Shown piece after piece: positions 1 to 46,785 of a DNA stretch of 64,000 nucleotides. The stretch's first letter is position 1. Each line of letters begins with the position of its first letter. The position numbers and the translations under genes are program-made. Below the pieces are notes generated by a model. That model was given only the letters and a program-made list of their open reading frames with translations. It was not told where the DNA came from and searched no databases. The DNA is from Eledone cirrhosa. Its lineage: Eukaryota. The stretch is from contig OZ024745.1 of assembly GCA_964016885.1 (NCBI GenBank), positions 115,568,001 to 115,632,000 of the forward strand, in the 5' to 3' direction.

Positions 1-270
1 TTATTATTATGTTAGACTATTTGTATGTAATATTTAATTTTTATTAATTCAACTATAACAATTATTATGTAAAATATATTTATTGATTGTTTTTTGTAGT
101 TGTTTATATTAAAAGTCTGAAAATATTTTTATACATCTTACAATAATATCTATAAGATCATTTATAAAATAACAATTATATAATCTAATTACATTACAAC
201 GATAATTTATTATTAATAGATATCATGTTTAACTAGAGTTATTACAAGCGTTGCCTTAAAAAAATTAAAC

Positions 271-719
271 TAGACCTGAAAAATGCGCAAGCTCAAAAGA
301 GCCACAGAATGTTATAACAAACCTTCAAAAGTGTGGGACTAGAGTTGTTGCTCAAAAATATTGTAATCATTATCTATCGTACACTCTGTGGCATCCTTTT
401 ATAAAAAAAAAAAGAGAGACTCATAACGAACTCAAGACGACACGATAATTATTTAAGTGAATTTATAATATAGAATTCGGTTTAAGTGCATTTCGTATTA
501 ATCATTACTAAACATCTAATATGAGATATTGAACATTAGCTTAAATAATTATCTTGTCGTCTTGAGTTCGTTATGAGTCTCTTTTTTATAAAAGGACGCC
601 ACAGAGTGTACGATAGATAATGATTACAATATTTTTTAGCAACAACTCTAGTCCCACACTTTTGAAGGTTTATTATAACATTTTGTCGCTCTTTTGAGCT
701 TGCGCATTTTTCAGGTCTA
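271..719. repeat. Long inverted repeat (arms ~271-457 / 540-719)
   Basis: The arms are near-exact reverse complements (tagacctgaaaaatgcgcaagctc... / ...gagcttgcgcatttttcaggtcta) with an ~82-bp spacer. Confidence 0.95.
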
Positions 720-861
720 TATTTAGGTTTGTTGGTTCACCACCGGATATAATTGGTCATTCCGTATGGTCAATCTTGATGCAATATTATGGAAAGTACT
801 CAACCTAGTGCAGTTCACTCGTCTTCGTTTGTGTAGTTGGTGGTGCGAATACGGAGTTAAT

Positions 862-1109
862 TATTATGAATAAAATAACAGGAGGCTGGACTGGTGTCAA
901 TCCTTGAAAAGTTTATTATACTATGATAATTTCGACCTCTCTGTCACTGATTTTCGGACCCATGGATTTTTATATATTCCTTTGTTATATTTCGAATACC
1001 TGATGATATCACCGGATTCATACGGAACCCGGTCATTGAAATGATCATAGTATAATAAACTTTTCAAGGATTTACACCAGTCCAGCCTCCTGTTATTTTA
1101 TTCATAATA
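862..1109. repeat. Inverted repeat (arms 862-933 / 1038-1109), probable Penelope-like pLTR end with inverted copy
   Basis: 72-bp arms are reverse complements. A hammerhead motif spans the spacer and right arm. Confidence 0.9.
996..1053 (+). ncRNA. Minimal type I hammerhead ribozyme
   Basis: Helix I atac/gtat; CTGATGA 1000-1006; stem II atcaccgg/ccggtcat; GAAA 1038-1041; palindromic stem III ATGATCAT; predicted cleavage after A1049; AATAAA follows. Confidence 0.8.
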
Positions 1110-1120
1110 TATATTTATAT

Positions 1121-1447
1121 ATATATCAAAGGTATATATTGAGTTAGGAACTCAAAATAGTCTCTTACAATAAAATAGCTCTAAGAAAGAGATTTTTCCG
1201 AGCCGTATATTATAATTGATTATAAAAGAAAAACGAACAGATATATACATATATGTGTTCAAATCGCAAGGGACCAGATATAAAAGAACTGGTGCCTTGC
1301 GATTTGAACACATATATGTATATATCTGTGTTCGTTTTTCTTTTATATTCAATTATAATATACGGCTCGGAAAAATCTCTTTCTTAGAGCTATTTTATTG
1401 TAAGAGACTATTTTGAGTTCCTAACGCAATATATACCTTTGATATAT
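1121..1447. repeat. Near-perfect palindrome (arms 1121-1277 / 1289-1447, 11-nt loop)
   Basis: Direct reverse-complement comparison. It also explains the mirrored 66-aa ORFs on both strands. Confidence 0.97.
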
Positions 1448-1594
1448 TCGGCTCCGTTAATTTGTTGAGCTATTTCAAATGTCGAATAAACTTGGCTGTT
1501 ATTTTTAGTGGTGTAAGTTTGTGAGACACGCTATTATATATCGCACACTATTCAGTTACTTAATATACTTAGAAGTGTCTAGGATACTAATTTG

Positions 1595-1674
1595 TCACCC
1601 ACTGATGAGCAAGAATTGGTATTTCTATTCACAATTAATTAGTATTGCGAAACAGCACCAAGCTCTCTGGGTGA
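1595..1674 (+). ncRNA. Type I hammerhead ribozyme (one stem III mismatch)
   Basis: Helix I TCACCCA/TGGGTGA (7 bp); CTGATGA 1602-1608; stem II GCAA/TTGC; GAAA 1649-1652; stem III ACAGC-accaa-GCTCT, C17. GCTGTC would be canonical. Confidence 0.8.
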
Positions 1675-1987
1675 TTGGTAGTTACCACAATTCCGGTTTG
1701 TATTTATTTTCTTGGATTTTTTTCTTAAATTGAGACAGGCAAACCCTATTGTCTATAGTTAGTATTCTTTTCACCATAGCGAATCTGGTCCCTTGCGATT
1801 TGAACACATATATGTATTTATCTGTGTTCGTTTTTCTTTTATATTCAATTATATATATATATATATATATATTAATAAGAGGAATTCCAACTTTGTCTGA
1901 TTTACTCGTTTTATTTACAATCCTTTAAAATCTATAATGGTATTATAATGAAATAGTATGATAGAATATTAAATGTTAAGTATTAAT

Positions 1988-2026
1988 TGAACAAATACTT
2001 TCATGCTTTCGCAATCTTCAGGTTCA
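1988..2026 (-). ncRNA. Inverted copy of the 2837-2875 hammerhead
   Basis: The minus strand reads TGAAC CTGAAGA TTGCGAAAGCAT GAAA GTATTT GTTCA, with one stem III C>T difference. Confidence 0.7.
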
Positions 2027-2836
2027 TAATGTGTGGTGACAGTCAAGTTTGCAATTTTCAACTGTAATGAGATGGGTAAATTTTGTACCTTATATACAGT
2101 GAAAAGTGGCTCCAGAATGCTAAATCTTGCAAACTGTATTTCGACCAATCGGTGTGTAGTTTCACTGAATTACTAAAGCTGATTGGTTTATGCGTCACGG
2201 TTGGTTGAGCATGTCTAACGACCACTAATTGATTCTATCCAAAGCATCAATTGTTTTGCTATTTTTAGAAATGATGAAAATAGCATTTTCTAGTAATCAT
2301 CACCATCAACATCACTTTTATTATTATCAGGGAATATTTATAATATTCCCATTCTACAAATTACACAGCCCAAGTGAAATCAAGAGAAAAATCAAAGAAA
2401 AGAATTTTATTGATAAATTCAAACCCAAGCTAAATGAACAATAATAATGCTTAGAGGTATTACTTCTACTATGACTATGACTACGACCATGTCGACTACG
2501 ACCACTAGCAACAACAACAACAACGACAACAATAATAATAATAATAAAAGTGATGTTGATGGTGATGATTACTAGAAAATGCTATTTTCATCATTTCTAA
2601 AAAATAGCAAAACAATTGATGCTTTGGATAGGATCAATTAGTGGTCGTTAGACATGCTCAACCAACCGTGACGCATAAACCAATCAGCTTTAGTAATTCA
2701 GTGAAACTACACACGGATTGGTCGAAATACAGTTTGCAAGATTTAGCATTCTGGAGCCACTTTTCACTGTATATAAGGTACAAAATTACCCATCTCATTA
2801 CAGTTGAAAATTGCAAACTTTTTTTTTTTTGCAAAA

Positions 2837-2875
2837 TGAACCTGAAGATTGCGAAAGCATGAAAGTACTTGTTCA
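2837..2875 (+). ncRNA. Minimal hammerhead ribozyme
   Basis: Helix I TGAAC/GTTCA; CTGAAGA; stem II TGC-GAAA-GCA; GAAA; palindromic stem III AGTACT; U17. Confidence 0.8.
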
Positions 2876-3830
2876 ATTAACACTTAACATTTGATATTCT
2901 ATCATACTATTTCATTATAATACCATTATAGATTTTAAAGGATTGTAAATAAAACGAGTAAATCAGACAAAGTTGGAATTCCTCTTATTAATATAATCTT
3001 TTATACACCATCATACACACCCGTGTATATTTATCTATATATATATATGCTTTACTACTTCTGTCTGTCTTTTCTATCTTCTGTCACTTGTGTCGATGAA
3101 TATATTGTGTAAATATGTTTTAAAACTTTCTCCCTTGCTATTGTGTGTCTGGTATTGAAATATTAATATGTAATATTATATGTATTTGAATTGCCTATAT
3201 CTCCGTATATTTATTGTCTATTATATATATATATTTTTTTTTTTTCACCATACTTTATTTTATTGTATGATATTATTATTTTTTACCCTGTAGAATACAT
3301 TATGTTTTTATACACGTTTTGTTGACTTTGTAAGGTACGTTGGATGTATTTATATATTTTTTTAATGTCAATATATTATTTTCAGTGATTTTAGTATTGT
3401 TTAATCACACCGTGAGGGTGATTATTCTATTATAATGCTTATATTTATATATTTGTGTTAATATGTGTAAATGTGTATATGTGTGTGTGTATATATATGT
3501 GTCGGAGTGCGTGTAGGTATATATATATATTAAATTTTATTTCTGTATTATGTATTGTATTGTATTGTATATTATATTACAATTTTTATATCTTATTTCT
3601 CGCATTATATTACTATGTTGTATTTCAAGTATTAGACTTATATTGTATTTTTAACGTGGGTTTGTTTAATGTTTGCTTGCTCTCTTGCCCTATAGCTTTT
3701 ATTTACAAATGCACCCTATTAGGTTTAACATGTCTTTCCATGATAATTTTCCTAAATTTTCCTAAATATCCATTCGCTATTCTTCTGAATTTTGGCTTGT
3801 TCTAGCCGATGATATTTCTTGTCTTTTTCC

Positions 3831-3875
3831 TTGCTCTGATGAGACCTAATTAATGGGACGAAACATTGTCAACAA
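3831..3875 (+). ncRNA. Minimal hammerhead ribozyme, slightly degenerate
   Basis: ttgct CTGATGA gacc-taattaatg-ggac GAAAC att GTC aacaa, overlapping AATAAA. Single mismatches in helix I and stem II. Confidence 0.65.
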
Positions 3876-4127
3876 ATAAAGATTTTTAATGTATTAAAGG
3901 CTTCTTTGTTAATTTTATATAATTTTTCGGCTGTTTGATAACATTGAGCTATATCTTATACTGTCATTTCTCTAATACGACGAGTGTGTTTAACTCTAAT
4001 GCACTCAAGTATTTTTATCATATATATATATGTATGTATACATACATATAGTAAAAGGAGAAGTGTATGGTTATCTACCCTGACAGTTCAATTAAATAGT
4101 TTCGACAAGAGCAGTATATATATATAT

Positions 4128-4663
4128 AGCAGTATTTTTCTCCCCATTTTATCACATATATTTACCTAAACTGCGATTCTGTTTTTTTCTCTCTCTCTCT
4201 CTTACTGCTCCCTCATTCTCTCTGTTTCTCCTACTTTCTTTCGCCCCCTCTGTCATGTCAGTTAACTCTTCCTCACACTTCCACTCACTCACTCACTGTT
4301 TCTCATCTCCTCACTTCACCCCCTTCGCAACGAAAGCAATTTCTCTCTTTCTCACATTGCATTCGTTCGCGAAAGGTCTTTTTTCTAAGCGCTCATATAT
4401 TCACCTAGCTTATGCTAACATAATAACTATGAAGCTTGTTTCCTTCCTTCTACGGTTAGCTCTACTCTTTGTTGTTTTCCTGTCTCACTCGCTTTACGCG
4501 TTTTAATTGTCCTAATAACTTAATTTAGTTATTATTGCACCGACGTGAGGTATATGATTTTTAATGCAATGAAATATTTATGATCGTCGGCAAATCACTG
4601 ATGAGGGACTTATTTTATTACATGTTATCCATGTGCTACCAGCAGTATTTTTCTCCCCATTTT

Positions 4664-4667
<4 letters not shown>
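4128..4667 (+). mobile_element. ~513-bp terminally redundant non-coding unit (PLE pLTR/retrozyme-like)
   Basis: 27-bp direct repeat agcagtatttttctccccattttatca at 4128 and 4641. CTGATGA-ggga...tcc half-hammerhead at 4598. Flanked by (TA)n. Confidence 0.5.
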
Positions 4668-4717
<50 letters not shown>

Positions 4718-4719
<2 letters not shown>

Positions 4720-5803
4720 CCTTTGATTCTGTGGACCGTTACTGCCTGATGAAGATCTTACAGGCTTATGGAATCCCCAAGAGGATAGTGGACCTGATAT
4801 CACTGCTCTACACCAACACCAAAGCCCAAGTCATTACACCTGATGGGATGACAGAGTTCTTTGAGATACTGGCTGGAGTGCTCCAGGGAGATACATTGGC
4901 TCCCTACCTTTTTATCATCGTAGTGGACTATTGTATGCGCCTTGCACTGGAGAAACACCAGGACTCTGGCTTTACTGTAGCACCGGCTCAGAGCAGGAGA
5001 GTTGGGGCGAAAAAGGTATCGGATGCTGAATTTGCCGACGACATAGTTTTGGTGACAAATACAGTGAAGGAGGCAGAGGATTTGATGCGGGAGGTTGAGA
5101 CTGTGTCGATGAGTGTGGGGCTGAGAATGAATGAGACTAAAACAAAATATCTGGTAGAGAATGTTGAGAAGCCAGAGGGGATCACTAATGTAGGCGGGAA
5201 GCCGCTGGAATTGGTTGAGGACTTCCTGTATTTGGGAGCAAAGATTGGGAATACGGAAGATGATGTGGTTGAGAGGAAGAGCAAGGCCTGGGCGGCGTGC
5301 CACAGCTTGAGATCGGTGTGGAAGTCGGACCTTCGTAGAGACCTGAAAATCCGCCTCTTCATTGCTGTAGTGGAGTCTGTGCTGCTGTGTGGGTCTGAGA
5401 CTTGGACACTGACCAAGAGACTCACTCAGATGGTGGATGGGTGCTACACGAGAATGCTGAGGATGGCTCTGAACATTAATCAGTATACACTGAGGATGAA
5501 AAACTCAGAGCTGTATGGGAGCCTCCCAAAAGTCAGCTCAAAAGTGACACAGAGGAGACTGAGGTTGGCTGGACATGCTCACCGACATCCAGAGTTGACA
5601 TTGCACTCCGTGCTCCTTTGGGAGCCCCTACATGGACACACTGGAAGAGGAAGACCAAGGTTAACATATGTTGATGCCCTAAGGACAGACACTGGTCTGT
5701 TGGAGACGCAGGACATGGCAGCGATAATGAGGGACAGAGACCGCTGGAGAGAACTCGTCCATGGATCTCGGGAATTTTACCCGCCTTAGATAGATAGATA
5801 GAT
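4718..5803 (+). mobile_element. 5'-truncated RTE-clade LINE, uninterrupted RT/C-terminal ORF
   Basis: AFDSVD, GVLQGDTLAPYLF, FADD, LCGSETW and RGRPR-like motifs. Stop at 5789 runs into a (TAGA)n tail. Inserted in (TA)n. Confidence 0.95.
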
Positions 5804-5808
5804 ATATA

Positions 5809-5922
5809 TATTAGAAATGTAAGCTATCGCCGTATTTTGACTAAAGAAATTAAAGACTATCAGGCTAAATAATTTCTTTAATTTCTTTAGTCAAAATACG
5901 GCGATAGCTTACATTTCTAATA
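5809..5922. repeat. Perfect hairpin (48-bp arms 5809-5856 / 5875-5922)
   Basis: tattagaaatgtaagctatcgccgtattttgactaaagaaattaaaga and its reverse complement, with an 18-nt loop. Confidence 0.95.
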
Positions 5923-6107
5923 ATTTCAAACCCACTCGCTGTTTCGAAAATATTCTTACATATATATATATGTTTATTCTTACATATATATATACTGCTC
6001 TTGTCGAAACTATTTAATTGAACTGTCAGGGTAGATAACCATACACTTCTCCTTTTACTTTTTACACAGTTATTTCCCTTTTAAGTATTCGCTGTTAATG
6101 ACAGCAA

Positions 6108-6340
6108 TTCTTCTTCTTCTTCTTCTTCTTCTTCTTCTTCTTCTTCTTCTTCTTCTTCTTCTTCTTCTTCTTCTTCTTCTTCTTCCTCCTCCTCCTTATT
6201 TCTAAGAGGGTCGTAGGGGCAGACTCCCCAAGGACTCCTTCCAGCAAGTCCTGTTTGAAGCAACCGTCTCCAATCTCTGTTCCATCAGAAGAAAGCACTA
6301 GATCTGACCTGCCCTTCCTCGGACCATACACCACATTGAG
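6108..6340 (-). mobile_element. RTE 3' end with expanded (GAA)n tail
   Basis: gagggtcgtaggggcagactcc... is shared with 50355-50700 and 53180-53270. (TTC)n at 6108-6185. Confidence 0.7.
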
Positions 6341-6344
6341 ACTG

Positions 6345-7452
6345 TTATAAAAGGCTCGTTAGTCCTTTTTATCAGTAGCTTCATGTAATTCGGATGCTTT
6401 AGCCATCCAACAGGCATCCTTCATCTTTCTAAGTCAGGACTGTACCTGCTGCTTGCAATCTTTGTTGTTGAATTTTTATCTCCAATTCAAATCCTGTGTG
6501 GGTTATGCATTCTGTTGATAAGGTTCTGAACATCTGAGTTGCCTTCATCAAACCAGTCCTGATGTTCTCTCATAGGAAATCATAAAATCTCCACAGAGGC
6601 TGCATAGGTGGCATCATTAAGCGCTTTCCTGGAACCCTCAATGTCATCAGAAATCTGAACAGAATCGATGGTTGATTGACTCATCCCTCGACTCTGTTCA
6701 GATTTCTGATGACATTGAGGCTTCGCAGAAAGTTTCAGCCTCCCATTAACTGATCGCAGCTTACCCACATCAATCTTGGATGGGATAGGTGGCCTCTGAA
6801 GACGCCTTTTGTTTGGAAGATTGAAAGAAACTTTACTGCGCAGCAGTGCATGATCAGAGAGATAACAAGAAAAGTGAAAAGAATGAGTGATTTTTAAAAT
6901 ATTTGAGGTGACACCTGCAGATGATGACATAGTCAATCATATACCAGTCCTTGGATCTAGGATTCATCCATCTTGTTTTATGGTTTGCACGTTGTTGAAA
7001 GAAGCTGTTGGTGATTCTGAGATAAAATTCTTTACAGAGTGAGAGCAGCCTAAGCCCATTGGAGTTCACAGCTCCGACTCCGTTAGATCCAAGGACGTTA
7101 TGCCATGTTTGAAAATCATTTCCAACTTTAGCATTGAAATCATCCATTATGATAAGCTTGTTCTTGTTGGAAACAGAGGAGATCACTGTGTGAAGCTGAT
7201 CGTAGAATATTTCAATCTCCTGCTCAGATGGATAGAGAGTTCGGGCATAACAACTTACTAGCGTAACAGAGGTGTTGTTTACCAAATCCAGTGACAGTCA
7301 TTATGCAATCACTGACACATTTGGAGAATGATGTTAGGGATTTCACAATGTCAGATCTGATGACAAAAGCAACACCCGATTGACGGTGGTCTTCACTCTT
7401 TCCAGACCAGAAAACTGAGTAGCCCTCTCCCACTTCTTTCATTTGGGACATG
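6345..7452 (-). pseudogene. RTE LINE APE-endonuclease region, decayed
   Basis: GYSVFWSG, SGVAF, DDFNAKVG, NSNGLRLL, WMNPRSK.W..IDY and SDH motifs, with frameshifts. Confidence 0.9.
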
Positions 7453-7690
7453 CCAGGGAGTCGGGTCTGAAACAAAAGTTGCAGTTTATCGTGCAGTGGT
7501 ATTACCAATACTCTTATATGGCTCAGAGTCATGGACACTTTACCGTACTCACATAAGCTTGATGTCTTCCACAAACGCTGTCTTCGCTCTGTCTGAGGAT
7601 ATGCACTTTCTGACAGTCTCCAGTACCGAACTGTTCACAAGGTGCAACAATGGTGGGATTGAGTTATTTATGATGCAATCCCAACTCATA
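7453..7690 (+). pseudogene. RTE ORF2 C-terminal fragment, opposite orientation
   Basis: YRAVVLPILLYGSESWTLYR motif. Confidence 0.8.
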
Positions 7691-8439: not shown

Positions 8440-10628
8440 GTCCAAATTATGGGTCTTGACCGACCTGCGTTCGAACGAAACTTTTAACTCTCTCTTGAAT
8501 CATGATCTTATAAAAATGGCCTCCGACGAGATAAATTGGCGCAGCCGAACTGAAAATCAGTCTGTTGAAACTTTGTGGCGAGAAATAAAGGAAATTCTAC
8601 TTGGGCTAACAGAAATGGCAGTGCCGCTGAGAACGCCAAAACGCAAGAAACACAAACCCTGGATAACAAAGACAATTATCCGCGAACGGAAGTTAAGAAA
8701 CGCTGCTTGGGGGGCACTATCAAGAGACCATGTCTGCGGCGGCATTTGAAGTCTACAGAAAGCAGCGAAATCATGTCGAGCATATTTCCAGAATTGGAAG
8801 GCAAAATTTTGAAAAGGAACTTGCAAATGATGCCGGTTGTAATCCAAAGCGATTTTATACTCACGTGCAGAGAAATCAAAAACTGAATAACCAAATTGTC
8901 ACTCTCCGAAACCCCGAAGGTGCAGTTATTGAACACGCTGACCAACAAGCTTCTCTTTTGGCCGATGTTTTCGCAAATATCTTCAAGGAAGACGATGGCA
9001 GAGAACCTCCAAATCTAAACATGATCGCCCCACCAATACAGCCAACCACCGTCAGACCGGACGAGGTGGAAAAGTTGCTTTTGTCCTTAGATGTGAATAA
9101 GGGGCATGGTCCAGACGGTCTACAACCAGCGATTTTGGGTGCAGTTGCACCCAACCCTGCTAAACCTCTAGCCACACCATTCAACCTGTCATTGGCTACC
9201 AGAGTTGTTCCTGCCGACTGGAAAGTAGCTATAATTTGCCCTATCTTTAAAAAAGGCGACAAAGAAGATCCGGGGAACTACAGACCCGTGAGCCTCACCT
9301 CAATTGTCTGTAAGTCCTTGGAATCTCTAATCAAGCGGGCAATTATGGCTCATCTTGCGTCTTTCACTGCCATCTCTCCATCTCAACACGGTTTCATCCT
9401 GAAACCTTTCTGTCTTACAAACCTACTCGTGATGGAAGAAGGGGTGACGAGGATAGTGTACGATGGAGATGCGGCCGATATTATCTTTCTCGAATTAGCC
9501 AAAGCCTTTCACTCTGTCAACCACCGCCTGCTCCTGTATAAGCTAAGCAACTACGGTCTCCATCACTCGATTATAAAGTGGATTGGATAATTTTTTGAGG
9601 GTCGTACTTGCAGAGTTCGGATCAATGGTAGTCTGTCCTCGGGGGTGGATGTAGGCAGCGGCGTTCCCCAGGGCTCTGTGTTGGGCCCAATTCTCTTCCT
9701 TCTATGCATCAACGACATGCCGGACGTGATTGGTGGAAACGTGCTTCTATTTGCAGATGATGTGAAAATGGTAGCCCGTAGGAGCGAGATCGACAATCTC
9801 AAGTCTAGCCTCCAGCGCGCCTGGAGTTGGGCCATTGACTGGGATTTATACCTCAATGTCGATAAGTGTTGCCATATGACAGTGACTACACCTTATAACT
9901 CAGCTCTTACCTTCAACGGTGGCACTGCTCCTTTGAAGGAGGTTGAGGAGACTAAAGATCTTGGTCTGCTGGTCGACTCGTACTTCAAACCATCAAAACA
10001 TTGCATTCAAGCCGCAAACAAGGCAAGGAGCTCTCTTTTTCTTATTTGACGCTCCTTTGCCAAACTCACTCCAGAAATTTTCAGGCCTCTCTATGCCGCC
10101 CTCATGAGACCGCACCTAGAATATGGCATCCAAGCATCAAACCCATATCTCATCCGGGATATCCATCACTTAGAGAGTTCAACGACTAGCGACTCGAATG
10201 GTACAGGGTCTTCATGAGCTGCCCTACGAAAGCCAGTTGCAGAAGCTGAACCTCTTCTCCTTGGAGCGTCGACGGCTAAGAGGCGATCTCATTTTGGCTT
10301 ACAATCTCTTCAATGGCCATTACGATCTCCCTCAAGATCTCCTATTCACTCCGGCACTTGAAAGGGGTCTACGCGGACATGACAAAAAGCTGTTTCACCG
10401 CCACTTTCGCCTAAATAGACGGAAAGCTGCTTTCTCGATCCGCATCTCTGGACCCTAGAATCGGCTTCCAGAAGAAGTAGTCAACGCGTCAACCACGCAA
10501 CAATTCAAGGCGAAATTGGACCGGTGTTGGACCACTGTGTTTCCGCTTGTGTAAATTTGCCCCCCCCCCCTTCCATGGCATCTGAAGCATCTATGTTTTA
10601 ATTTCTGCCAAATATATTGAATTGAATT
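8440..10628 (+). mobile_element. CR1-clade LINE, 5'-truncated, with stops and frameshifts
   Basis: KPWIT, GPDGL, PIFKKGD...[36 protein letters not shown] and LRGH motifs. Ends in ttgaattgaatt. Confidence 0.93.
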
Positions 10629-15284: not shown

Positions 15285-15945
15285 ACTGTTTCTACGTTTG
15301 GCACAAGGCCAGCAAAACACCCAGTGCATTACTGGTACTTTATTTTATCGACCCCATAAGGATGAAAGTTAACCTCGGCGGGATTTGAACTCAGAATGGC
15401 AAGGGCCGTAACTCTATACGTCAAAGCATGGCGTCCGACCCTCTACCGATACTGCCAATCCATAAAAATAATAATTTAATTCTTTCTAACATTGGCACAA
15501 GGCCAGCAATTTGACGGAAGGGTAAAGTTGATTATATCGACCAATTGACCCTTGTGATGTGTGACTGATTGACATACTTGGTGGTGAATAGATCTTTTTG
15601 TGTTTTTCTCTCTCGCTTTGATTTTATAAATGATCAAAGCGAGAATTATAATCTGTAATGTTATTTATATAGATATAACTATCTATTCACAGTTGTATAA
15701 ATAACATTACAGATTATAATTCTCGCTTTGATCATTTATAAGATCAAAGCGAGAATTATAATCTGTAATGTTATTTATACAACTGTGAATAGATATAACT
15801 TTAAAAAAAATACTTAACTCCAACTTTATTTTATCGACCCCATAAGGGCGAAAGGCAAAGCAAACCTCTGCGAGATTTGAACTCAGAACGTAAAGGGTCA
15901 TAAACTATGTTGTCCGACGCTCTACCGATACTGCCAACCCACCGC
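15285..15945 (-). mobile_element. Two SINE family 1 copies, the second split by a foldback insertion
   Basis: Copy at 15285-15462. The second copy has its tail at 15481-15542 and its head at 15823-15945. Confidence 0.8.
15611..15795. repeat. Nested multi-foldback repeat
   Basis: The segment gatcaaagcgagaattataatctgtaatgttatttata occurs in alternating orientations (-,+,-,+), the first copy partial. Confidence 0.9.
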
Positions 15946-16863: not shown

Positions 16864-17225
16864 CGGCACATGGATTAGTGGTTAGAGCATTGGGCTTGCA
16901 GTTGAGAGGTTGTGAGTTTGCTTCTTGGTCCGGGTGTTGTGCTGTGTCCTTGAGCAAGACACTTTATTTCATGTTGCTCCAGTTTACTCAGCTATAGAAA
17001 TGAGTTGCGACGTCACTGGTACCAAACTGTATTGATCATTGCCTTTCTCTTGGACAATATCAGTGGCGTGGAGAGGGGAGGCTGGTATGCATGGGCGACT
17101 ACTGGTCTTCCACAAAACAAACCTTGCCCAGGCTTGTGCCTCAGAGGGAAACTTTCTAGGTGCAAAGCCATGGTCATTTGTGACCAAGTGAGGCCTTCAA
17201 AAGATGTCATCATCATCATCATCAT
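16864..17225 (+). mobile_element. tRNA-derived SINE family 2 (CORE-like body)
   Basis: ggcacatggattagtggttagagc head, gtgtccttgagcaagacactt core, (CAT)n tail. Confidence 0.85.
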
Positions 17226-17550
17226 TTCATTTTACGTCCGCTTTTCTCTGCTTGCAAGGGTGGGACGGGAACTGATTCTGGCTTAATTTCTACAGCTGGA
17301 TGCCCTTCCTAACACCAACCTCATTTACAGTGAGTGCTGGATGCTTTTTTGCCGTGGCACCTCCACGACCACTTTGCAGTGGAATGATATGGACCCCAGT
17401 CCCTATCATCTCATTTCTATAGCTGAGTAAACTGGAGCAATGTGAAATAAAGTTTCTTGCTCAAGGAAACAACACATCACCCGGTCTGAGAATTGAACTC
17501 ACAACCTTTCGATTGCAAGGCCAATGCTCTAAACATTAAGCCATGTGCCA
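17226..17550 (-). mobile_element. SINE family 2 with RTE-like tail
   Basis: Near-identical reverse complement of 22743-23070 and 51559-51925. Confidence 0.9.
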
Positions 17551-21519: not shown

Positions 21520-22470
21520 GTCTTAGATCTCACAATCTGTAACCAGGTCTTTCTTGGTCTACCATAACTCCCTTCCACTGGAATTTCCTGGCATTTCTTT
21601 ACCCAGTGGTCATCATCCATGTGCATCACATGCCCATGCCAATGATGCAGTCTTCTCTCCTACACACCACCACGGATTCTTCTTAAAGCCAGCTTCTCTC
21701 CCAGCTCATCCAAGCTCTGCCTTTCTCTCACACTTACATTGCACATCTAACGAAGCATGGATGCTTCATTTCTCCCCAGTCTCTGCATGTCCTCTGCTTT
21801 ACTGCCCATGTTTCACTACCATGTAGCACATGTCCTCTGCTGTCACAGCCCATGTTTCACTACGATGCAACACCACATGTCCTCTGCTTGTCACTGCCCA
21901 TGTAGCACCATGTGTCCTCTGCTATCACTGCCCATGTTTCACTACCATGTAGCACCATGTGGTCTCTGCAGTCACTGCCCATGTTTCACTACGATGCAAC
22001 ACCACTTGGCCTCTGCAGTCACTGCTCATGTTTCACTACCATGTAGCACCACATGTCCTCTACTGTCACTGCCCATGTTTCACTAACATGTAGCACCACA
22101 TGTCCTCTGCTGTCACTGCCCATGTTTCACTACCATATAGCACCATGTGTCCTCTGCAGTCACAGCCCATGTTTCACTACCATGTAGCACCATATGTCCT
22201 CTGTTGTCGCTGCCCATGTTTCACTACCATGTATTACCATGTGTCCTCTGCAGTCACAGCCCATGTTTCATTACTATGTAGTACCACATGTCCTCTGCTG
22301 TCACTGCCCATGTCTCACTACCATGTAGTACCACGTGTGCTTTGCAGTCGCTGACAATGCAGCATTGCACTTTGCATGCAGGTGTCATTCAGCTGTCCCT
22401 TTGTTGTCAAAATAGGGATTAGTTCTCTAAACTTCTTCCATCCTATCCTAATTCTAGCTATTATCTCTCA
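21520..22470 (-). pseudogene. RTE C-terminal fragment with internal minisatellite
   Basis: MHMDDDHWVKKC...GRPRKTW on the minus strand. Confidence 0.8.
21788..22350. repeat. 47-bp minisatellite (~12 copies)
   Basis: Unit tgtcctctgctgtcactgcccatgtttcactaccatgtagcacca(ca). Confidence 0.9.
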
Positions 22471-22742: not shown

Positions 22743-23070
22743 GGAGGCACATGGCTTAGTGGTTAGAGCATTGACCTTGCAATCGAAAGGTTGTGAGTTC
22801 AATTCTCAGACCGGGTGATGGGTTGTTTCCTTGAACAAGACACTTTATTTCACATTGCTCCAGTTTACTCAGCTGTAGAAATGAGATGATAGGGACTGGG
22901 GTCCATATCATTCCACTGCAAAGTGGACGTGGAGGTGCCACGGCAAAAAAGCACCCAGCACTCACTGTAAATGAGGTTGGTGTTAGGAAGGGTATCCAGC
23001 TGTAGAAATCAAGCCAGAATCAGTTCCCGTCCCACCCTTGCAAGCAGGGAAAAAGTGGACGTAAAATGAA
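22743..23070 (+). mobile_element. SINE family 2
   Basis: Full head, core and ttggtgttaggaagggtatccagctgtagaa tail. Confidence 0.9.
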
Positions 23071-24946
23071 AAAAAAATATCTATATATATCTATATATAT
23101 CATCATGATCATTGTTTAACATCCATCTTCCACGCTAGCATGGGTTGGACGGGTTTGTCCTACTTGAGGCAAGATTGGTTGGGTGACCGTGTCTCGCTTG
23201 TACAGTACTGTCCCTGGCAGGTTTTCTACAGCTGGATGCCCTTCCTAACACCAACCACATTTACAGTGTGGACTGAGAGCCTTTTTACCGTGTCTCCTAC
23301 ACGCCCACTTTACACTGTGGACTGGGTGCTTTTTGTCGTATCACCTACACGACCACATTACAGTGTGGACTGGGTGCTTTTTGTTGTGTCACCTACACGA
23401 CCACATTACAGTGAGGACTGGGTGCTTTTTGTCGTGTCACCTACACATCCACATTAAATGGTTGGAAAAACACTGATTTACAAAATAGTGATTTACACAA
23501 AGCTAGAGCTATAAGCTATAATCGGTTTGAGAATGTTATAAATATGCCATGTACTGAGATATTAGGTATTACACGGTTGACTTAACACTAGGTACCAGCT
23601 TTATGTGCTCTTTCAACGTGTGGGTGCATATTTTTCACTATTCAAATTTTTTAATGTAGGCATTGGATTAATAAGTATTTATTAGAGAACTTTGATCAAG
23701 ACTCTTAACCCATGCTTGTTCTGTCTCTCTACACTGAACAAATACAAGTCACTGCTTGTAGCTAAACTTTCGCTCCAATTCACAGTAATTGTAGTTTTGT
23801 TTCTTTTGTATCCTTGTTAACTCAGTCATGAGAGGATTTTGTTACAACTGGAGGTTTATGTGAGAAAAATAAGTTGAAGAAGCTAGTAGTGTGGACAATC
23901 TTAGAGAAAATTAGGGTATTAGTACAGGAAGTCTACTTTATAGCTCTTGACTTCAATAGTTTTCTCTCTTCTAGTACTTAAAGCTTCATAACACAACTTC
24001 AAAAAATACGTTTTCAATTAAACTTGTACAATGCCCTTTTTTCACTAATATTCACTTTTTATAATAAAGTTTGAGTAAATTTAATCTACTCTTCTCTAGT
24101 TTCATTCCAAGCCTTTGAATTAGTTAGTATGCAGTTAAAAGTTAATTCTGTTTCTTATCTCTTTAGTCAACATATTGCTTTTGAAATACATTGCCTATGT
24201 GTTTCAATGGCAAAATTGTTTACCAATTGGGCAGGAACTTGTCAAATCAGACCAAGGAAACAGTGTTTCCATTGTCTTGCCATTACTGATACTATCTACC
24301 GGTCACAATTCCTGGCAGAAAGAGCAATGAGAAATAAAATGCCTTTACATTGGCTTAGTGGTTAGAGAACTGGGGTTGTGAGTATGATTCCTGAACTGGG
24401 CGATGCATTATGTCCCTAAACAAGACATTTTATTTCACATTGCTATTTCTGCCAGGAGTTGTGACTGGTAGATAGTATCAGCAATGGACAGACCAATGGA
24501 ACATTGTTTCCTTGGTCCTATTTGATGAGTTTCACCCTACTTGGTAAGTGAATGCAGTCTGGGAATTTGTCGATTGATGTGTTTCAATTGGATTGAGAAT
24601 TTGATGAATCTAGTAAAATAATTAATTTTATAATTATTTTCTTATCCTGAAAGGTTTTAATATAAATATGAATACATAAAAATGAGAGTGTTTATATTGT
24701 AGAGTCAGGGGTGCCTCAGGCTATCAAAAGTTTTGTTTTGTTTCAAATGTCACTTGTTCTATAACATTTCTGAACTTCAAACCTTGTCTTCTTGTTTTTA
24801 TTTATTTATTTGTTTTTATAAGATAGATGAGGTTAGACAATGGTCAGATTTGATGGAGTTGTTGCTCAGTTTGAACATCTGCTTGGCAGAAAAATGTGCA
24901 TAATTAAGTAATTCTTGAGGATTACATTTTGAAGGAATGTCTAGGT

Positions 24947-27377
24947 CACAGGTTCTCAACCCATTTAGGCCAAACGCCCTCTTTTGTCCCTCAAAATCAC
25001 GAAACGCCCCCCCCCCCCTTATTTTTCCACTTTTCAATATACTACTGATTTTGATATCAGTAGATTACTAAAAAAATGATTAACAATATTCCAAAGATAC
25101 TATTGAAGGCAGCTGAGAGTATAAATACATTCCTTGAAAGGAAATATATAAATTTCAAAAAAAGGAACATAAATGTTCTTTTTTATGAATAAGGACCAGT
25201 TGAATTTGTTATATTCCCACCAGACGATACCAACTATTTTGAACATTTATACAAGAGCAACTCTGTCTATCCAAAGAGTGCTCTTATCTGGAAGAAAGTG
25301 GCAATTATATCATTTCAAAGCTTTCCAATTTTCCCTTTAATGAAACGGACAGAATAAATGTTGATATCTAACTTGATGTCATCTCTGCTTTGTGAGCTTA
25401 GAGACCACGGAAGAGGGTATATTTATTAGTAAATGGTAAAATATATACAACAAATGAGTAAGTGAATTGTAGTAGATGGTTTCCAGTCCAGTCAGACTGC
25501 AACTACAAATAAAAAAAAATTGTTAGTTTGCTTTGTAACAATAGCATATCCAAGTTTTCGGATAAATCAACTTACTTTAACTTTGACCTCATTTCAATGG
25601 GACCCTTGAACTCTATGGAGTCTAGCTAACTCTTTGACGTCAGGCTGGATTTTAGAAAGATGTAGCCGGAGATCTCCACGTGTAATTACATTGTAGCGGT
25701 TGTGAGCCTTACTGTGCAGTCTGGAAACAGCACCAAACCTCCTCTTGACTAAGTATGAGCTTGGAAAAGGCAGAGCAAATCTCTTAGCCTCTACATGTAG
25801 GTGTGGAAATCGACACTGAATTTCCTCTTGCATCCAAAAAAGGGGTTCACCTATTTTAGGAAATCTAATTTTGATCATGTCATCTGCTTGAAGTTCAATG
25901 AATTCTTCCTGAAATATAACGTCCAAATTATCGACATTAGCTATGAAGGGATCTGCTATCCACATTGGGATGTCCATCAGCAAAAGGTCGACAAACAGTT
26001 CTCCCATGTTGTCTTGTAGCGCATAGAGGTGAGCGGTATAAATTTGGAGTTGGTCATCGCTTACAATGTTTGAACATTGGCGACATTAGGAAATATAGAA
26101 TTCCCGTCAACAAAGATTCCTTTCGATGACATTCAATTTGGCCAGGAATGTTTTCACAGCATTCCTTGCTTTATGCAAGGTGATCTTCTTCCCCTGCAAA
26201 GCCAAAATGACGCTATTGCATTTGTCGACGATGTTGGTGAGGTAGGCGCAGTTTTGCCTCACATCAAGGGTTTTCTTGTACAGTTCTGTGTTGCGTCCTC
26301 GTAGAAACTCAATAATAGAGTCGAACAGTTCAAAGAAGTGAGTAAGGCACTTGCCCTTTGAAAGCCACCTCACTTCATTATGAAGGAGCAACTTGACGAA
26401 TTCTTCGTCATTATCTTGACACATTGCCGGAAAATTCGTTCATTGAGGGAATGCTGTTTGATAAAATTGATGACATCAAGGGCCACTTGCAAGGACTTGC
26501 TCAGCGGCTTGCTGAGTTTCTTCGCAGCCAAGTGTTGTCGATGAATGACACAATGAACAACAAATACAGATAGATTTTCTTTCTTCAGAAGAGTGACGAA
26601 ACCCTTATGTTGGCCGACCATTGCTCTTGCGTCGTCCTTGCACATCATCCAATGTGTGTTGTATTTGGTCCTAGATGTATGTATTACCTGCCTGTGTGTT
26701 GTAGGTAGTCTTAGATGTATGTGTATTACCTTTTTATATATTGCATGTGGTCCCAGCTGTATGTATTACCTGCTTGTGTGTTGTATGTGGTCCTAGATGT
26801 GTGTGCTACCTCCTTATGTGTTGCATGTGGTCCTAGATGTGTGTATTACCTGCTTATGTGTTGTATGTGGTCCTAGATGCGTGTATTACCTGCTTATGTG
26901 TTGCATGTGGTCTGAGATGTGTGTGCTACCCGCTTCTGTGTTTTTTTTTCTTTTTTATTTGTAATATTATACAATAGGGAATAAAATAGATCTACATAGT
27001 GTTAACTCGTTACGGTTGAGTCAATAATTTCAGACATGAAATACATTGTTATCGGTGAAGGAAAGACAAGATTCTAACTGGTTACACTCGAAGTGTCCTT
27101 GACCCAGTTGACTGTGGGTTTTCTCCATTGTTAGGATCTCAATTACCGGTTAATGTCTAGACACGCCTGCACACCTGCTCATCTGCTCACAGCTGCGGTC
27201 AGACCGTTATGCTGTCTGCATGCTCATTCAAATGCATTCACACTGGCTGTCTCAAAGACATACAAATATGGCTTATAAAACTTACCAAAGTAAAGAGCCT
27301 TCCAAAGCTCCAAACGCCCCCTGGAGTTCTGAAACGCCCCCCGGGGAGTACATATGCCCCCCCGTTGAGAACCTTTG
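24947..27377 (-). mobile_element. hAT (Buster/Charlie-type) DNA transposon, defective
   Basis: TIRs cacaggttctcaac / gttgagaacctttg and 8-bp TSD gtctaggt (24939-24946, 27378-27385). Frameshifted transposase at 25594-26648 with DDARAMVG, HCVIHRQHLA, LLLHNEVRWLSKG and PFPSSYL motifs. Confidence 0.95.
26652..26940. repeat. 40-bp minisatellite inside the hAT element
   Basis: Unit gtggtcctagatgtgtgtattacctgcttatgtgttgtat, ~7 copies. Confidence 0.85.
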
Positions 27378-28307: not shown

Positions 28308-28348
28308 CAGTTCTGATGAAGGGTAATGACCTAGAAATATGTTGATTG
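28308..28348 (+). ncRNA. Degenerate minimal hammerhead in PON intron 2
   Basis: cagtt CTGATGA aggg-taatga-ccta GAAA tatg tt gattg, lying within a ~390-bp unit bounded by direct repeats. Confidence 0.45.
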
Positions 28349-32704: not shown

Positions 32705-32794
32705 TTAAAGGAATTTTAATAAATCATATTACTCCTCAACTTAATTCAATCTCATACTTATTTTATTGATCTCTATTTAGTGAATTGTTCATTT

Positions 32795-33929
32795 ACTGTC
32801 TCATTATAAGCTGGTACTTCATTTATTAACACCTACTGTCTCATTATAAACTGGTACTTCATTTGTTAACACCTACTGTCTCATTATAAACTGGTGCTTC
32901 ATTTATCAACACCTACTGTCTCATTATAAACTGGTACTTCATTTATCAACACCTACTGTCTCATTATAAACTGGTACTTCATTTATCAACACCTACTGTT
33001 TCATTATAAACTGGTACTTCATTTATCAACACCTACTGTTTCATTATAAACTGGTACTTCATTTATCAACACCTACTATCTCATTATAAACTGGTACTTC
33101 ATTTATCAACCTCAACTGTCTCATAACATTATAAACTGGTACTTCATTTATCAACACCTACTGTCTCATTATAAACTGGTACTTCATTTATCAACACCTA
33201 TTGTTTCATAAACTGGTACTTCATTTATCAACCTCAACTGCCTCATTATAAACTGGTACTTCATTTATCAACACCTACTGTCTCATTATAAACTGTTACT
33301 TCATTTATCAACACCTATTGTCTCATTATAAACTGGTACTTCATATATCAACCTCAACTATCTCATAAACTGGTACTTCATTTATCAACCTCAACTGTCT
33401 CATAACATTATAAACTGGTACTTAATTTATCAACACCTACTGTCTCATTATAAACTGGTACTTCATTTATCAACACCTATTGTTTCATAAACTGGTACTT
33501 CATTTATCAACCTCAACTGCCTCATAACATTATAAACTGGTACTTCATTTATCAACCTCTACCGTCTCATTATAAACTGGTACTTCATTTATCAACCTCA
33601 ACTGTCTCATAACATTATAAACTGGTACTTCATTTATCAACACATACTGTCTCATTATAAACTGGTACTTCATTTATCAACCTCAACTGTCTCATAACAT
33701 TATAAACTGGTACTTAATTTATCAACACCTACTGTCTCATTATAAACTGGTACTTCATTTATCAACACCTACAGTCTCATTATAAACTGGTACTTCATTT
33801 ATCAACACCTACAGTCTCATTATAAACTGGTACTTCATTTATCAACACCTACAGTCTCATTATAAACTGGTACTTCATTTATCAACACCTACAGTCTCAT
33901 TATAAACTGGTACTTCATTTATCAACCTC
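32795..33929. repeat. 40-bp minisatellite (~28 copies) derived from SINE family 1
   Basis: Unit cctactgtctcattataaactggtacttcatttatcaaca runs directly into SINE sequence (gatgaaa...aaagttgacc...gatttgaact). Confidence 0.95.
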
Positions 33930-35552: not shown

Positions 35553-35799
35553 GTTAGCTTTTATTCTTTATATTTTTCTTATAATTTCTAGAAACAATTG
35601 AAAAGAGAATACTACACATAACTATTTTCCTTTTTCTGATATTTTATCTTTCGTAGGATCTGATTGAGAAGTATCATTATGTATAAATTGGTAGAAATGA
35701 GATATGATCTTCAATATCTCCTAATCAATGACAAATATATATTTGATGCACCTCCCTCACCCAAGTCCCCAATCTACACTGCAAATTGCTTGTGTAGGT

Positions 35800-36225
35800 G
35801 GCACAAAAAATGGGCTTAGTCCACACTGTAAAGTGGTCATGTAGGTGTCACAAGAAAAAGTGCACAGTCCACACTGTAAAGTGGTCATGTGGGTGCCAGA
35901 ACAAAAAGTGCCCAGTCTACACTGTAAAGTGGTTATGTAGGTGTCGTGACAAGAAGTGCCCTGTCCACACCGTAAAGTGGTCATGTAGGTGTCAGTACAA
36001 AACACACCAACTCCACACTATAAAGTGGTTGTGTAGGTGTCAGAACAAAAGGTGCCCAGTCCACACTGTGATTGGCGTTAGGAAATGCATCCAGCCATAG
36101 AAACCAAGCCCAAATCTGTTTTGTATGAACAAGACAAGGTCATCTGACCTGGCTTGTCACATAATGGGACAGCTCGTCTAACCCATGCTAGCATGGAAAA
36201 AATACATTAAATGGTGATGATGATA
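35800..36225 (+). repeat. RTE-tail/SINE-derived element with ~41-bp tandem unit
   Basis: Unit cccagtccacactgtaaagtggtcatgtaggtgtca... Also at 23260-23455, 46040-46420, 51720-51820 and 58240-58325. Confidence 0.8.
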
Positions 36226-42309: not shown

Positions 42310-42545
42310 AGCACTAACTACTAAACTGTACATTAGATAATGTAGTCCTAGATACATTATGTCTGATAGCCAGTAACACTAACTACTGTACTGTATATTA
42401 GATAATGTAGTCCTAGATACATTATGTCTGATAGCCACTAATACTAACTACTGTAATGTACATTATATAATCTAGTCCTTGATAAACTATGTCTGATAAC
42501 CACTAATGCTAACTACTGTAATGTACATTAGCTAATGTAGTCTTA
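42310..42545. repeat. ~65-bp tandem repeat (~3.5 copies)
   Basis: cactaactactgtactgtacattagataatgtagtcctagatacattatgtctgatagc repeated. Confidence 0.85.
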
Positions 42546-43687
42546 GGTACACTCTGCATCAGTTGTTAGCTGCTGAGACACTGCATCCTTTAAAACGCTA
42601 CACCTGATATCCTCCTCCATACACACACACACATGTATATCATGACTCATACACTGTTCACTTTCCTGACATTTGTACATTATTCTATGTACTATACATG
42701 CACCTTTGATGAGTTGTAGTGCACCTGAGCACTGTACACAATAATTTCATTATTATTATTGGCGACCTATGTAGGAAATCGTATTATCGTGAGCTCCACA
42801 AAGGTTTGTTGTTAAGTGTTTCTAAGTTCACATATATTGCTTTCTGAAAAGGACACTCAATAATATTGGGGCCTTGAGCCCAAAATTTAAACTTTATATT
42901 TATCAAACAAAAAATTTCTTTGAAAAAAAACATGGACGGCATCAGCTACCAAAATCTGCTGACAGCCATCCTAACAGACTAACATCTCCCACCACCACCA
43001 GTATTGTAAACCTTGCTACGGTTTTCAACACTGAAAATATAAGTAATAGCAGTGGCAATTATTTAGATTTGTCACATACAGACATGGATTTCCTGCCATT
43101 ACCAATGTCTACAGGTGTTAAAGCTGCCATCACCACCACCACCACCACAATGTCAAAAAGAACAACCAACACCACTGATACCACCACCACCACCACCACC
43201 ATATCAACTGAAACAAAAAATAAATTATCTCGTGATATTGAAATGGATTCTCCGAAAATCGACTCTTCCATGCCGAACGCCACTGACACCACCACCACAA
43301 CTGAAACTAAAAATAATGATAACAAAAATAACAATAACAACAACAACAGCAACAACAAGAATAACAACACCAGCGCCGAACCAAATGTCGTTTGCTAAAG
43401 CGGCAAACAAAAATGAAACGGTTGAGGTAAGCCAGGAAGAATTAAATGAAGCCAAGCGAATGGTAAAAAAATATGGTTACAGGGTCAGCCCCCACCATCT
43501 AATACCATGGAGCATCGGCGCCTATGCACTGTCATATCGCACGATAAACATTATAACACGCTGAGTGGAACGGGCATCCGAGTCCCTGATACAGAAAGCT
43601 TTGGGACATGTGTGGGCTCAAAAAACCCACATCAGACGTGGACAAAAATATGGAACCATCTACAATCTTCTTATTATTATTAATAGA

Positions 43688-45820: not shown

Positions 45821-46785
45821 GTATGATATATATGATATGAAATAAATATTGAACTTGTTGCAAACACCCATGATAATTAGACATCATCATTATCATATAT
45901 CTATGTTCCATAGTTGTATGGTTGCCACATACTGAGGCTAGACATTTCAAGTGACTATGTTCTGTTTTTAGTATGGTTTCATTGGCTGGATGTCCTTCCT
46001 AATGCCAATCATTTTATAACATGTATTGAGAACATCTTATCATGACCCCAGCACTACCACCTTAAAGGATATACTAGGTGCTTTTGTTGTGACACCAGCA
46101 CTACCACCACTTTACAGAGTGGACTGGGTGCTTTTGTTGTGACACCAGCACTACCACCACTTTACAGAGTGGACTGGGTGCTTTTGTTGTGACACCAGCA
46201 CTACCACCACTTTACAGAGTGGACTGGATACTTTTTCTCATGACACCAGCACTACCACCTTACAGGGTGGACTGGGTGCTTTTTATCATGACACCAGCAC
46301 TACCACCTTACAGGGTGGACTGGGTGCTTTTTATCATGGTACCAGCACTACCAGCTTACAGGGTCAACTGGGAGCTTTTTATCACCAGTACTTTCAATTT
46401 ACAGGCTGGACTGGGTGCTTTACCTCATTAAAACAACAGGATGCTTGTGGTGTCCTTGGTTAGGCTAGTGAAGCAGTGATGGGAGTTGGGTGTAAGATGA
46501 GAGGAGGCAGGCTTCACATTGCCACTGTGGGAGAGGAAGTGTCAGCCTTCAACACATCAACCCAAATATTCTTTGGTCTTCCTCTTCCACATGTTTCATC
46601 ATCTTTCAGTGCCCTGTACTTCTTTATGTAGCTGTCATTCTCAATGTACATTACGTGTCCATACCAGCACCATTTTCTCTTTTTTCACTGCATCTTATCC
46701 CTCTTATGCTTAACTCTTCTCTTAGTTTGCTAACACTTTGTTATTCATGTACACTGCTATTCCACATTCATATAGTAAATCAAGT

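Follow-up and report, generated by a model that had tools for sequence, protein, structure and literature searches.

Rearranged hammerhead ribozymes of type SGC and type CSG have been described and validated by in vitro cleavage (Eckert et al. 2023, PMC10085705); according to the main text of that paper, the published SGC ribozymes came from metatranscriptomes only, and the genomes of known organisms yielded none but one GCS candidate. The non-long-terminal-repeat retrozymes of animals are short tandem units without an open reading frame (ORF), with one ribozyme each, that are thought to parasitise Penelope-like elements (PLEs); in the parts of the literature considered here, they were defined and searched for with descriptors of the type-I hammerhead (Cervera & de la Pena 2020, PMC7229834; Li, Clavereau & Pollet 2026). 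PLE insertions are tandem or inverted in structure, and some carry an additional tail (Craig et al. 2021, PMC8557442). For one PLE family, Naiad, the sections of that paper considered here report no canonical hammerhead, only 'HHR_core' and 'HHR_half_core' flags, and in the eight 'HHR_half_core' cases the second half lies 35-50 nucleotides (nt) away on either side. We analyzed positions 1-6110 of a 64-kb stretch of the Eledone cirrhosa genome (contig OZ024745.1; the whole stretch of 64,000 nt is called the window). This part of the window is a chain of independent insertions at (TA)n, formed by PLEs and their likely non-coding parasites; its elements are lettered A-F and H. We consider it quite probable that the chain includes a parasite, unit F, with a complete hammerhead core in the block order site, GAAA, CUGAnGA (S-G-C; C-S-G is its circular permutation), predicted to self-cleave after A4554.

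A predicted rearranged hammerhead in unit F

Unit F and the parts of its motif are as follows.

4128-4668, + strand: element F, a 513-nt ORF-less unit (4128-4640) and the first 28 nt of the next unit, with (TA)25 at its end
4535-4605, + strand: rearranged (S-G-C) hammerhead
4535-4539/4565-4569: helix Y
4540-4545/4585-4590: helix X
4546-4548/4579-4584: kink-turn
4549-4553/4574-4578: stem III
4555-4560/4592-4597: stem I
4570-4574: U11.1 and GAAA
4598-4604: CUGAUGA
4605: G10.1

The original prediction had marked two hammerhead half-motifs, at 4598 and 6006. The first is actually the last block of what reads as a complete rearranged core (4535-4605), predicted to self-cleave 3′ of A4554. The core was recognized by comparing F with a family 73-79% related to it: GAAA, 27 nt upstream of CUGAUGA, and a UH site further upstream make it complete. 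All conserved core bases are present in F (UH, 4553-4554; GAAA, 4571-4574; CUGAnGA, 4598-4604). As half of a type-I or type-II hammerhead, 4598 failed on stem II and on the sequence of the related family, and F had no type-I fold by descriptor. The arms of the inverted repeat 4050/6059 were rejected as a repeat family because a genome search, which skips common words, matched only the two window copies; 6006 is therefore a chance GAAAC...GTC in unique flank, and its pairing with 4598 was ruled out.

Blocks C and G are joined by pair 10.1-11.1 only (84% paired, with a swap from A-U to U-A in one family). The bases 5′ of 11.1 pair with the 5′ flank directly before X (helix Y) instead of with block C. 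Stem II is thus split, and the far ends of stem I, Y and X meet in a second three-way junction, which may do the job of the published tie between stem I and stem II; no helix of the published kind was seen. The two core-proximal pairs of helix Y alternate between G-C/U-A and U-A/C-G. Between stem III and helix X, a 3-nt bulge is followed by G.A, A.G and U.U, as in a standard kink-turn, which is described as a duplex, a 3-nt bulge and then G.A and A.G pairs (PMC4382518). According to the sections of the same source considered here, kink-turns with 3n=G or 3b=C can fold by ions alone; the pair after the GA steps was U.U in 18 of 31 clusters of the motif, with 3n=G or 3b=C among the others. Folding predicts the hairpin of X and stem III and leaves stem I to form as a pseudoknot.

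Two further features of the architecture were noticed. In several families, GGAC after G10.1 can pair with GTCC upstream of helix Y (4508-4512 and 4606-4609 in the window; loci L058, L164, L172, L158, L285 and L286), which would add a helix and a four-way junction at the base of the ribozyme. In one S-G-C subfamily (L257, L261, L265 and L271, at about 1500-1560), 10.1-11.1 is A.C, the linker is shorter and the kink-turn is shifted in register.

Conservation and genomic copies

A family-level pattern for the F motif had 9,009 genome matches, against 0 for the reversed pattern. When the pattern held only the core and kink-turn letters and one strong pair, there were 104 matches (3 for the control), and older, diverse families were recovered; a cephalopod-type pattern had 0 matches in metagenome contigs. 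Pairing-based S-G-C descriptors were applied to three sets of copy loci fetched from the genome (enriched sequence; 620 kb, 854 kb and 1.56 Mb) and found 44, 106 and 133 motifs, respectively, with none in shuffles of those sequences (5, 2 and 3 shuffles). Unselected sequence (400 kb) contained 3 motifs.

The 154 motifs that fitted by invariant letters formed 31 clusters. Paired cells over these clusters were 134/186 for helix X, 99/124 for stem III and 133/186 for stem I, each above all 2,000 partner shuffles, a control that ignores the relatedness of copies and so does not give probabilities, whereas slid controls retain it. In a 19-row alignment (18 clusters with the spacing of the window and one further variant, with the 13 clusters of other spacing excluded), 87.4% of cells were paired, compared with 65.5 ± 1.7% after shuffling and 28-46% after sliding, and two-sided changes occurred at 15 of 18 pairs (stem I, 5/6; stem III, 4/5). 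Helix Y was paired in 73.7% of cells (shuffled, 62.2 ± 3.3%; slid, 22-45%), and the whole model including it had two-sided changes at 19 of 23 pairs. In this alignment of diverse copies, all five helices of the motif covary. Letters outside the descriptor obeyed hammerhead rules: N7 was variable, and every one of the 27 stem sets had A or C as H17. Two further features that had not been imposed were the pairing of 10.1-11.1 (23/27 stem sets) and the presence of both kink-turn GA steps (20/27).

The 19 best-scoring other rows of F (18 loci, chosen by score and 97-99% alike) were without exception partial tandems in direct orientation; their 5′ ends varied, TA runs flanked most of them, and inverted copies were found in 0 of the 18 loci. 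The head-to-tail joint of F (4663 to 4162) was present in contigs of other runs; four contig sets were compared, with 3560-4666 only, and 4041-4114 was nearly uncovered and hence uninformative either way. F shares with retrozymes the short ORF-less head-to-tail units but has no type-I hammerhead in each unit. It would thus work like a retrozyme yet lie outside the published definition, with an S-G-C fold in place of type I. The genomic 3′ ends of F are approximately 110 nt past the predicted cut, which fits internal initiation of reverse transcription.

Related S-G-C units vary in length, with periods of 630-637 nt (L156, L170 and L176), 672 nt (L164), 573 nt (L256) and 525 nt (L198), and several S-G-C-bearing units show inverted copies, unlike F. 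A PLE family with WW and YSRYVDD motifs, a C-terminal endonuclease and its own type-I hammerhead (L198, L201, L125, L215 and L260) often adjoins S-G-C units and is apparently separate from them.

Relation to published ribozymes and elements

As in type SGC (main text of Eckert et al. 2023), the F motif has the site-GAAA-CUGAnGA order, all core bases, a short linker that connects stem I with the stem II side and covarying stems I and III. Unlike type SGC as described there, it is found in an animal genome in thousands of copies; its blocks C and G share 10.1-11.1 only, the rest of stem II coming from a fourth, 5′ segment (helix Y); and its stem III is joined to helix X by a kink-turn, the terms 'k-turn' and 'kink' being absent from that main text. 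Because a full stem II between blocks C and G is lacking, we file the F motif as a putative variant of type SGC and not as a plain member. Like the animal retrozymes, F consists of short ORF-less tandem units, each with one (here predicted) ribozyme, and would parasitise PLEs; the type-I descriptors used for retrozymes are blind to F.

Naiads, as described in the sections of Craig et al. (2021, PMC8557442) considered here, target (TA)n with tandem and inverted insertions, like F, but are autonomous and have an N-terminal endonuclease, whereas F has no frame. The published Naiad consensus file was read by eye around core strings, with no control, and line-broken strings were missed; the strings inspected were CTGATGA (60/62), CTGACGA (19/23), CTGAGGA (10/25) and CTGAAGA (31/43). 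On this reading, 16 of 54 records fitted, 10 as S-G-C and 6 as C-S-G, with 5-13 pairs in stems I and III. The S-G-C records were three from Acropora, Naiad_Ovul, the record before it, Naiad_Esco and four placed by file position only, and the C-S-G records were all in the nematode part of the file, including Naiad-2_Nbra and Naiad-3_Nbra. Two octopus consensus 3′ untranslated regions (UTRs) shared with the F motif the S-G-C order, helices X and Y and the kink-turn letters; helix-Y pairing was visible in six S-G-C-type records. Several S-G-C and C-S-G records had at least 15 nearly continuous pairs in stem III and X, which cannot close in one molecule and points to a dimer. Many core strings of the file, including the bivalve part and several from arthropods, fitted neither order by eye. 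A full-text literature search, judged by titles and abstract starts and mostly outside subscription journals, found no rearranged hammerhead in animal genomes or Naiads and no paper combining hammerhead, k-turn and retrotransposon.

Interpretation of the motif

If the motif acts as predicted, the RNA of F would first form the hairpin of X, kink-turn and stem III; the 3′ tail (stem I strand, CUGAUGA and G10.1) and the 5′ flank (helix Y) would then dock on its 20-nt loop and complete the catalytic core, in which helix Y takes the place of stem II's 5′ strand. Where the helices are short and fixed, bending of X at the kink-turn could let a single molecule close. Otherwise, two tandem copies could dock on each other in head-to-tail fashion, and only multimers would then be cleaved, a limit already proposed for the minimal hammerheads of PLEs. 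Cleaved tandem transcripts would give unit-length RNA; as in the model for retrozymes, a TA-targeting PLE protein would copy this RNA into new TA sites. The likely ancestors of F-type units are Naiad-type PLE ends, a descent suggested by their common architecture and target.

The alternative that survives best is that 4535-4605 is a conserved structure and not a self-standing rearranged ribozyme, being either a dead relic (a protein-binding or packaging signal) or a type-III hammerhead that borrows the GAAA of the next unit. Type-III order does arise in the tandem array when blocks S and C are taken from one unit and block G from the unit that follows, but stem III and X form a local, covarying hairpin with the unit's own GAAA, and the same order occurs in single copies in the Naiad 3′ UTRs inspected. 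Nor does a relic account well for core letters that obey hammerhead rules where these were not imposed, although the lone stem II pair that joins block C to block G, the weak stem I and a cage-like geometry that requires a sharp bend or a partner would all suit it. Related S-G-C and C-S-G RNAs, moreover, cleave in vitro (main text of PMC10085705). We regard this alternative as unlikely.

Several points weigh against the preferred reading, a chain of TA-run insertions with a self-cleaving S-G-C core in F. The stem I of F is weak (-2.3 kcal/mol), a plain fold favors a small hairpin over the tail, and blocks C and G are linked by just one stem II pair, in contrast to the validated SGC ribozymes. 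Several of the 31 clusters pair poorly and represent decayed copies or false hits, and the loci were partly collected by patterns that fix the core and kink-turn letters, so that the invariance of those letters is partly circular; the relatedness of copies noted above belongs here too. Variants were shared more within than between insertions of F (0.43 vs. 0.05, or 0.25 without one identical pair), but since the inverted copies of the autonomous element D show the same trend (0.17 vs. 0.03), this sharing is not specific to rolling-circle copying or a circular template. The inverted copy of flank at the 5′ junction of F (4050-4128) was discarded as a general feature of F-type insertions, only one weak candidate, mostly TA, being present in 26 F-type loci. 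No Naiad frame was found upstream of any S-G-C motif in the fetched loci, either by tblastn, for which the queries were frames resembling Neptune, Hydra and Nematis, or by a profile built from 15 PLE reverse transcriptase (RT) fragments, a query set that included no Naiad protein and was possibly too distant, and a short octopus-Naiad pattern had 0 matches in this genome. Finally, in vitro insertion by an anole PLE did not need hammerhead cleavage (PMC11167929).

A rearranged core is likely to explain why hammerheads were reported to be lacking in one PLE family, Naiad. More broadly, we lean slightly toward the view that Naiads and F-like parasites carry widespread four-segment rearranged hammerheads (S-G-C and C-S-G) that are invisible to standard descriptors. 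In the present genome, the fold would be closed by the kink-turn, and the 3b.3n pair would decide whether cleavage is switched by a host protein of the L7Ae/15.5K type or by ions; long-helix Naiads would form an antiparallel dimer, each hairpin docking with its base on its partner's loop, and cleavage would be limited to tandem transcripts. Within the literature searched, no earlier non-circularly permuted ribozyme is reported from the genome of a known kind of organism; the F motif would be the first, with at least 9,000 copies, and its split stem II and kink-turn would fall outside the three-block scheme as published in the main text of Eckert et al. It would bear on the open question of why Naiad and most Chlamys are seemingly without a hammerhead when all other PLEs have one, as stated in the sources considered here. 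Surveys of animal genomes that relied on type-I descriptors would have undercounted ribozymes and retrozymes, and the motif would provide a natural, possibly protein-gated ribozyme scaffold.

Organization of the insertions

The other features of the stretch are listed below.

1-719, + strand: element A, the 3′ part of a fixed approximately 1.16-kb non-coding element that starts 443 nt upstream of the window
720-933, - strand: element B, inverted copy with a long 3′ tail
934-1109, + strand: element B, sense copy, 5′-truncated, ending in a TA run
996-1053, + strand: type-I hammerhead of B, with U.U at 10.1-11.1 and a palindromic stem III; no private change among 26 copies
1121-1279, - strand: element C, inverted copy with a long tail
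1289-1853, + strand: element C, sense copy, 1.1 units of a 496-510-nt ORF-less tandem unit
1595-1674, + strand: type-I hammerhead of C
1868-2327, - strand: element D, inverted short-tail copy, with a hammerhead at 2026-1988
2327-3048, + strand: element D, sense copy, 5′-truncated PLE of Neptune type (assigned from motifs)
3046-4020, + strand: element E, 3′ UTR fragment of a PLE of Hydra type (assigned from motifs), with a hammerhead at 3831-3875
4050-4128, - strand: inverted duplicate of the unique right flank (copy of 5981-6059) and a TA run
4667-4717: (TA)25 run
4719-5790, + strand: 5′-truncated RT fragment of a long interspersed nuclear element (LINE) (RVT_1, E 6.6e-15), absent from the original prediction
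5809-5959, + strand: element H, an inverted arm (5809-5856) and a sense fragment (5857-5959) of an approximately 265-nt tandem unit
5981-6110: unique right flank, with the chance GAAAC...GTC at 6006

Matches to other loci covered 1-4717 and 5787-6001 completely, except for 4051-4114. Each segment is a member of its own dispersed family. The insertions terminate in a new TA run, and almost all junctions have such runs, 8-51 nt in length. The claim that several PLE and retrozyme-like families had repeatedly inserted at one TA-rich site held up: elements D and E were tied to PLE frames elsewhere, and the break points of inversions were specific to each copy.

Element D had 29 other loci, with an upstream frame containing RT, a CX4CxxC linker and a CxxC..H..H endonuclease; in L014, RVT_1 and GIY-YIG were in one contiguous frame. 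The sense copy in the window holds the last 38 codons of the GIY-YIG endonuclease (2328-2441), the 3′ UTR, a hammerhead (2837-2875), a long tail and a TA run. By its RT, CX2-5CxxC linker and C-terminal GIY-YIG with CCHH, D is assigned to Neptune, from motifs and not from RT phylogeny. Element E is likewise assigned to Hydra by its sequence features, having elsewhere a frame with a CxCX5C linker, no CCHH, CxxC and CxH beside conserved E and N, and (TA)n insertion. Both elements match the Neptune and Hydra PLEs, as described in the sections of Craig et al. (2021) and Cervera & de la Pena (2014, PMC4209133) considered here, in domain order, linker cysteines, 3′-repeat hammerhead, TA targeting, 5′ truncation, inverted upstream copy and optional tail; nothing about them is notable beside those PLEs, and they are ordinary new families.

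Element C, a tandem ORF-less unit with a type-I hammerhead, is retrozyme-like. The family of B resembles an approximately 2.0-kb ORF-less tandem unit (period approximately 2.0 kb in L295, 1.75 kb in common with L296), and no PLE frame of at least 110 amino acids, and so no autonomous partner, was found in 8 extended loci. The family of H carries a tRNA-like module elsewhere (tRNA-Ser(GGA) called in 3 of 5 loci), and no hammerhead in any of six block orders was found in its fetched loci. H-type 265-nt tandem or inverted units (L135, L136, L138 and L139) spread into TA runs like PLE parasites, and the last H bases are repeated around a TA run as a short direct duplication just before the flank (5951-5994).

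Element A, which we take to be non-autonomous and Helitron-like (5′ TC, 3′ CTRR, insertion between A and T), is bounded by A before its initial TC and by T after its final CTAG, and ends in a 449-nt palindrome (271-719). In 19 other loci, picked by best score to the palindrome, the start was at -441 to -443 in 18, G and then T followed the palindrome in 17, and the palindrome, a fixed part of the family, was present in all. Its fixed ends are like those of non-autonomous Helitrons; its terminal hairpin measures about 450 nt, against about 20 nt in Helitrons. No hammerhead was found in the family, which had 963 first-look candidates in the genome. The LINE fragment is presumably RTE-like; its relatives also end in TA runs (L038, L137, L146, L216 and L241) and may also favor microsatellites.

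Foldbacks and type-I hammerheads

Six inverted repeats had been claimed, several of them adjoining TA runs, and both statements were borne out. Their arms are as follows.

260-408/582-730 and 410-471/526-587: element A
862-933/1038-1109: element B
1121-1258/1310-1447: element C
1868-2327/2538-2995, in pieces: element D
4050-4128/5981-6059: right-flank duplicate
5809-5856/5875-5922: element H

Most of these foldbacks are per-insertion inversions. In the inverted copies of B, C, D and H, the inner end differed from locus to locus and the tail was often different, in keeping with the tandem or inverted structure published for PLEs; for D, 7 of the 29 other loci had an inverted copy, and no inner end equaled that of the window. 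At the 5′ junction of F, 4050-4128 repeats 79 nt of the right flank in inverted form and has eight letters, AGCAGTAT, in common with the 5′ end of F. New cDNA that folds back (onto the strand that primed it), or that primes a second time at the 5′ junction, could give rise to the inversions and to the inverted flank copy. Further inverted repeats were seen in the window at 15611-15795, 16865-17549, 22914-23317, 24220-24547 and 6624-6732, and an approximately 115-nt foldback family was inserted after TA runs in L074, L075, L081, L085 and L131.

The five type-I hammerhead cores of the original prediction are real. The descriptor found four complete folds in 1-6100 (CUGA at 1602+, 2021-, 2842+ and 3836+), whereas 300 dinucleotide shuffles averaged 0.05 and never gave more than 1. 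The fifth fold (1000+) failed the strict descriptor because of U.U and C.C mismatches in stem II, which are family-wide, and passed a looser one. An Rfam scan of the window gave no hammerhead at E ≤ 1 and only generic miRNA-hairpin matches, below the gathering score. Not all the foldbacks bear hammerheads, the families of 271-719 and 5809-5922 having none that we found. Two more type-I folds lie elsewhere in the window, at 13437 (- strand), with its family present in other loci, and at 28313 (+ strand).

Frequency of such loci in the genome

An automated count gave 5 foldbacks in 1-6100, compared with a mean of 1.07 and a maximum of 4 in 40 unselected 6.1-kb tiles; one of 40 overlapping offset tiles had 6 foldbacks and 6 hammerhead folds. 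Counts of foldbacks and of hammerhead folds both increased with the number of TA runs (Spearman 0.49), and comparable heaps were found beside most fetched copies. The locus is thus the upper tail of a genome-wide habit, and its pile-up is routine PLE biology. Heaping is genome-wide probably because each insertion leaves a new TA target: TA-targeting PLE endonucleases would nick the TA run left by the previous insertion, and heaps would grow by themselves.

The locus had been suggested to be special, a functional read-through locus whose long double-stranded hairpins, cut by ribozymes, feed small-RNA or editing pathways. Its 5 foldbacks place it at the upper end of the density range, none of the 40 tiles having more than 4, but similar heaps are found in unselected sequence as well as next to most of the fetched copies. 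Five of the six ribozyme cores are on the + strand, and a read-through transcript would contain several hairpins, 48-456 bp long; however, the B hammerhead (1000) has its GAAA and cleavage site inside a foldback arm and the D hammerhead (2842) is wholly inside one, so that the arms would pair them away. The copies of C and E, in turn, have private stem-breaking changes: C at 1665, against G in 26 of 26 aligned copies, breaks the pair beside the cleavage triplet of C, and E (3831-3875, core at 3836) has two such changes (3844 and 3872). As insertion mechanics account for every part, we consider a self-processing hairpin or small-RNA locus very improbable and set that suggestion aside.

That the palindromes are assembly fold-back artifacts is scarcely credible, for although no locus-spanning long read or contig was seen, and palindromes and TA runs are hard to assemble, the arms have diverged like family copies (15 of 443 columns in D) and their tails differ, the same geometry with other break points occurs at many loci, and the tandem joint of F is present in independent contigs.

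Additional features of the window

Two other LINE fragments with RT or endonuclease frames are present, at 8697-10458 (+ strand) and 6580-7634 (- strand). Minisatellite arrays with periods of 40-65 nt occupy 21819-22353, 26655-26942, 32794-33926, 35763-36069, 42312-42551 and 46037-46421.

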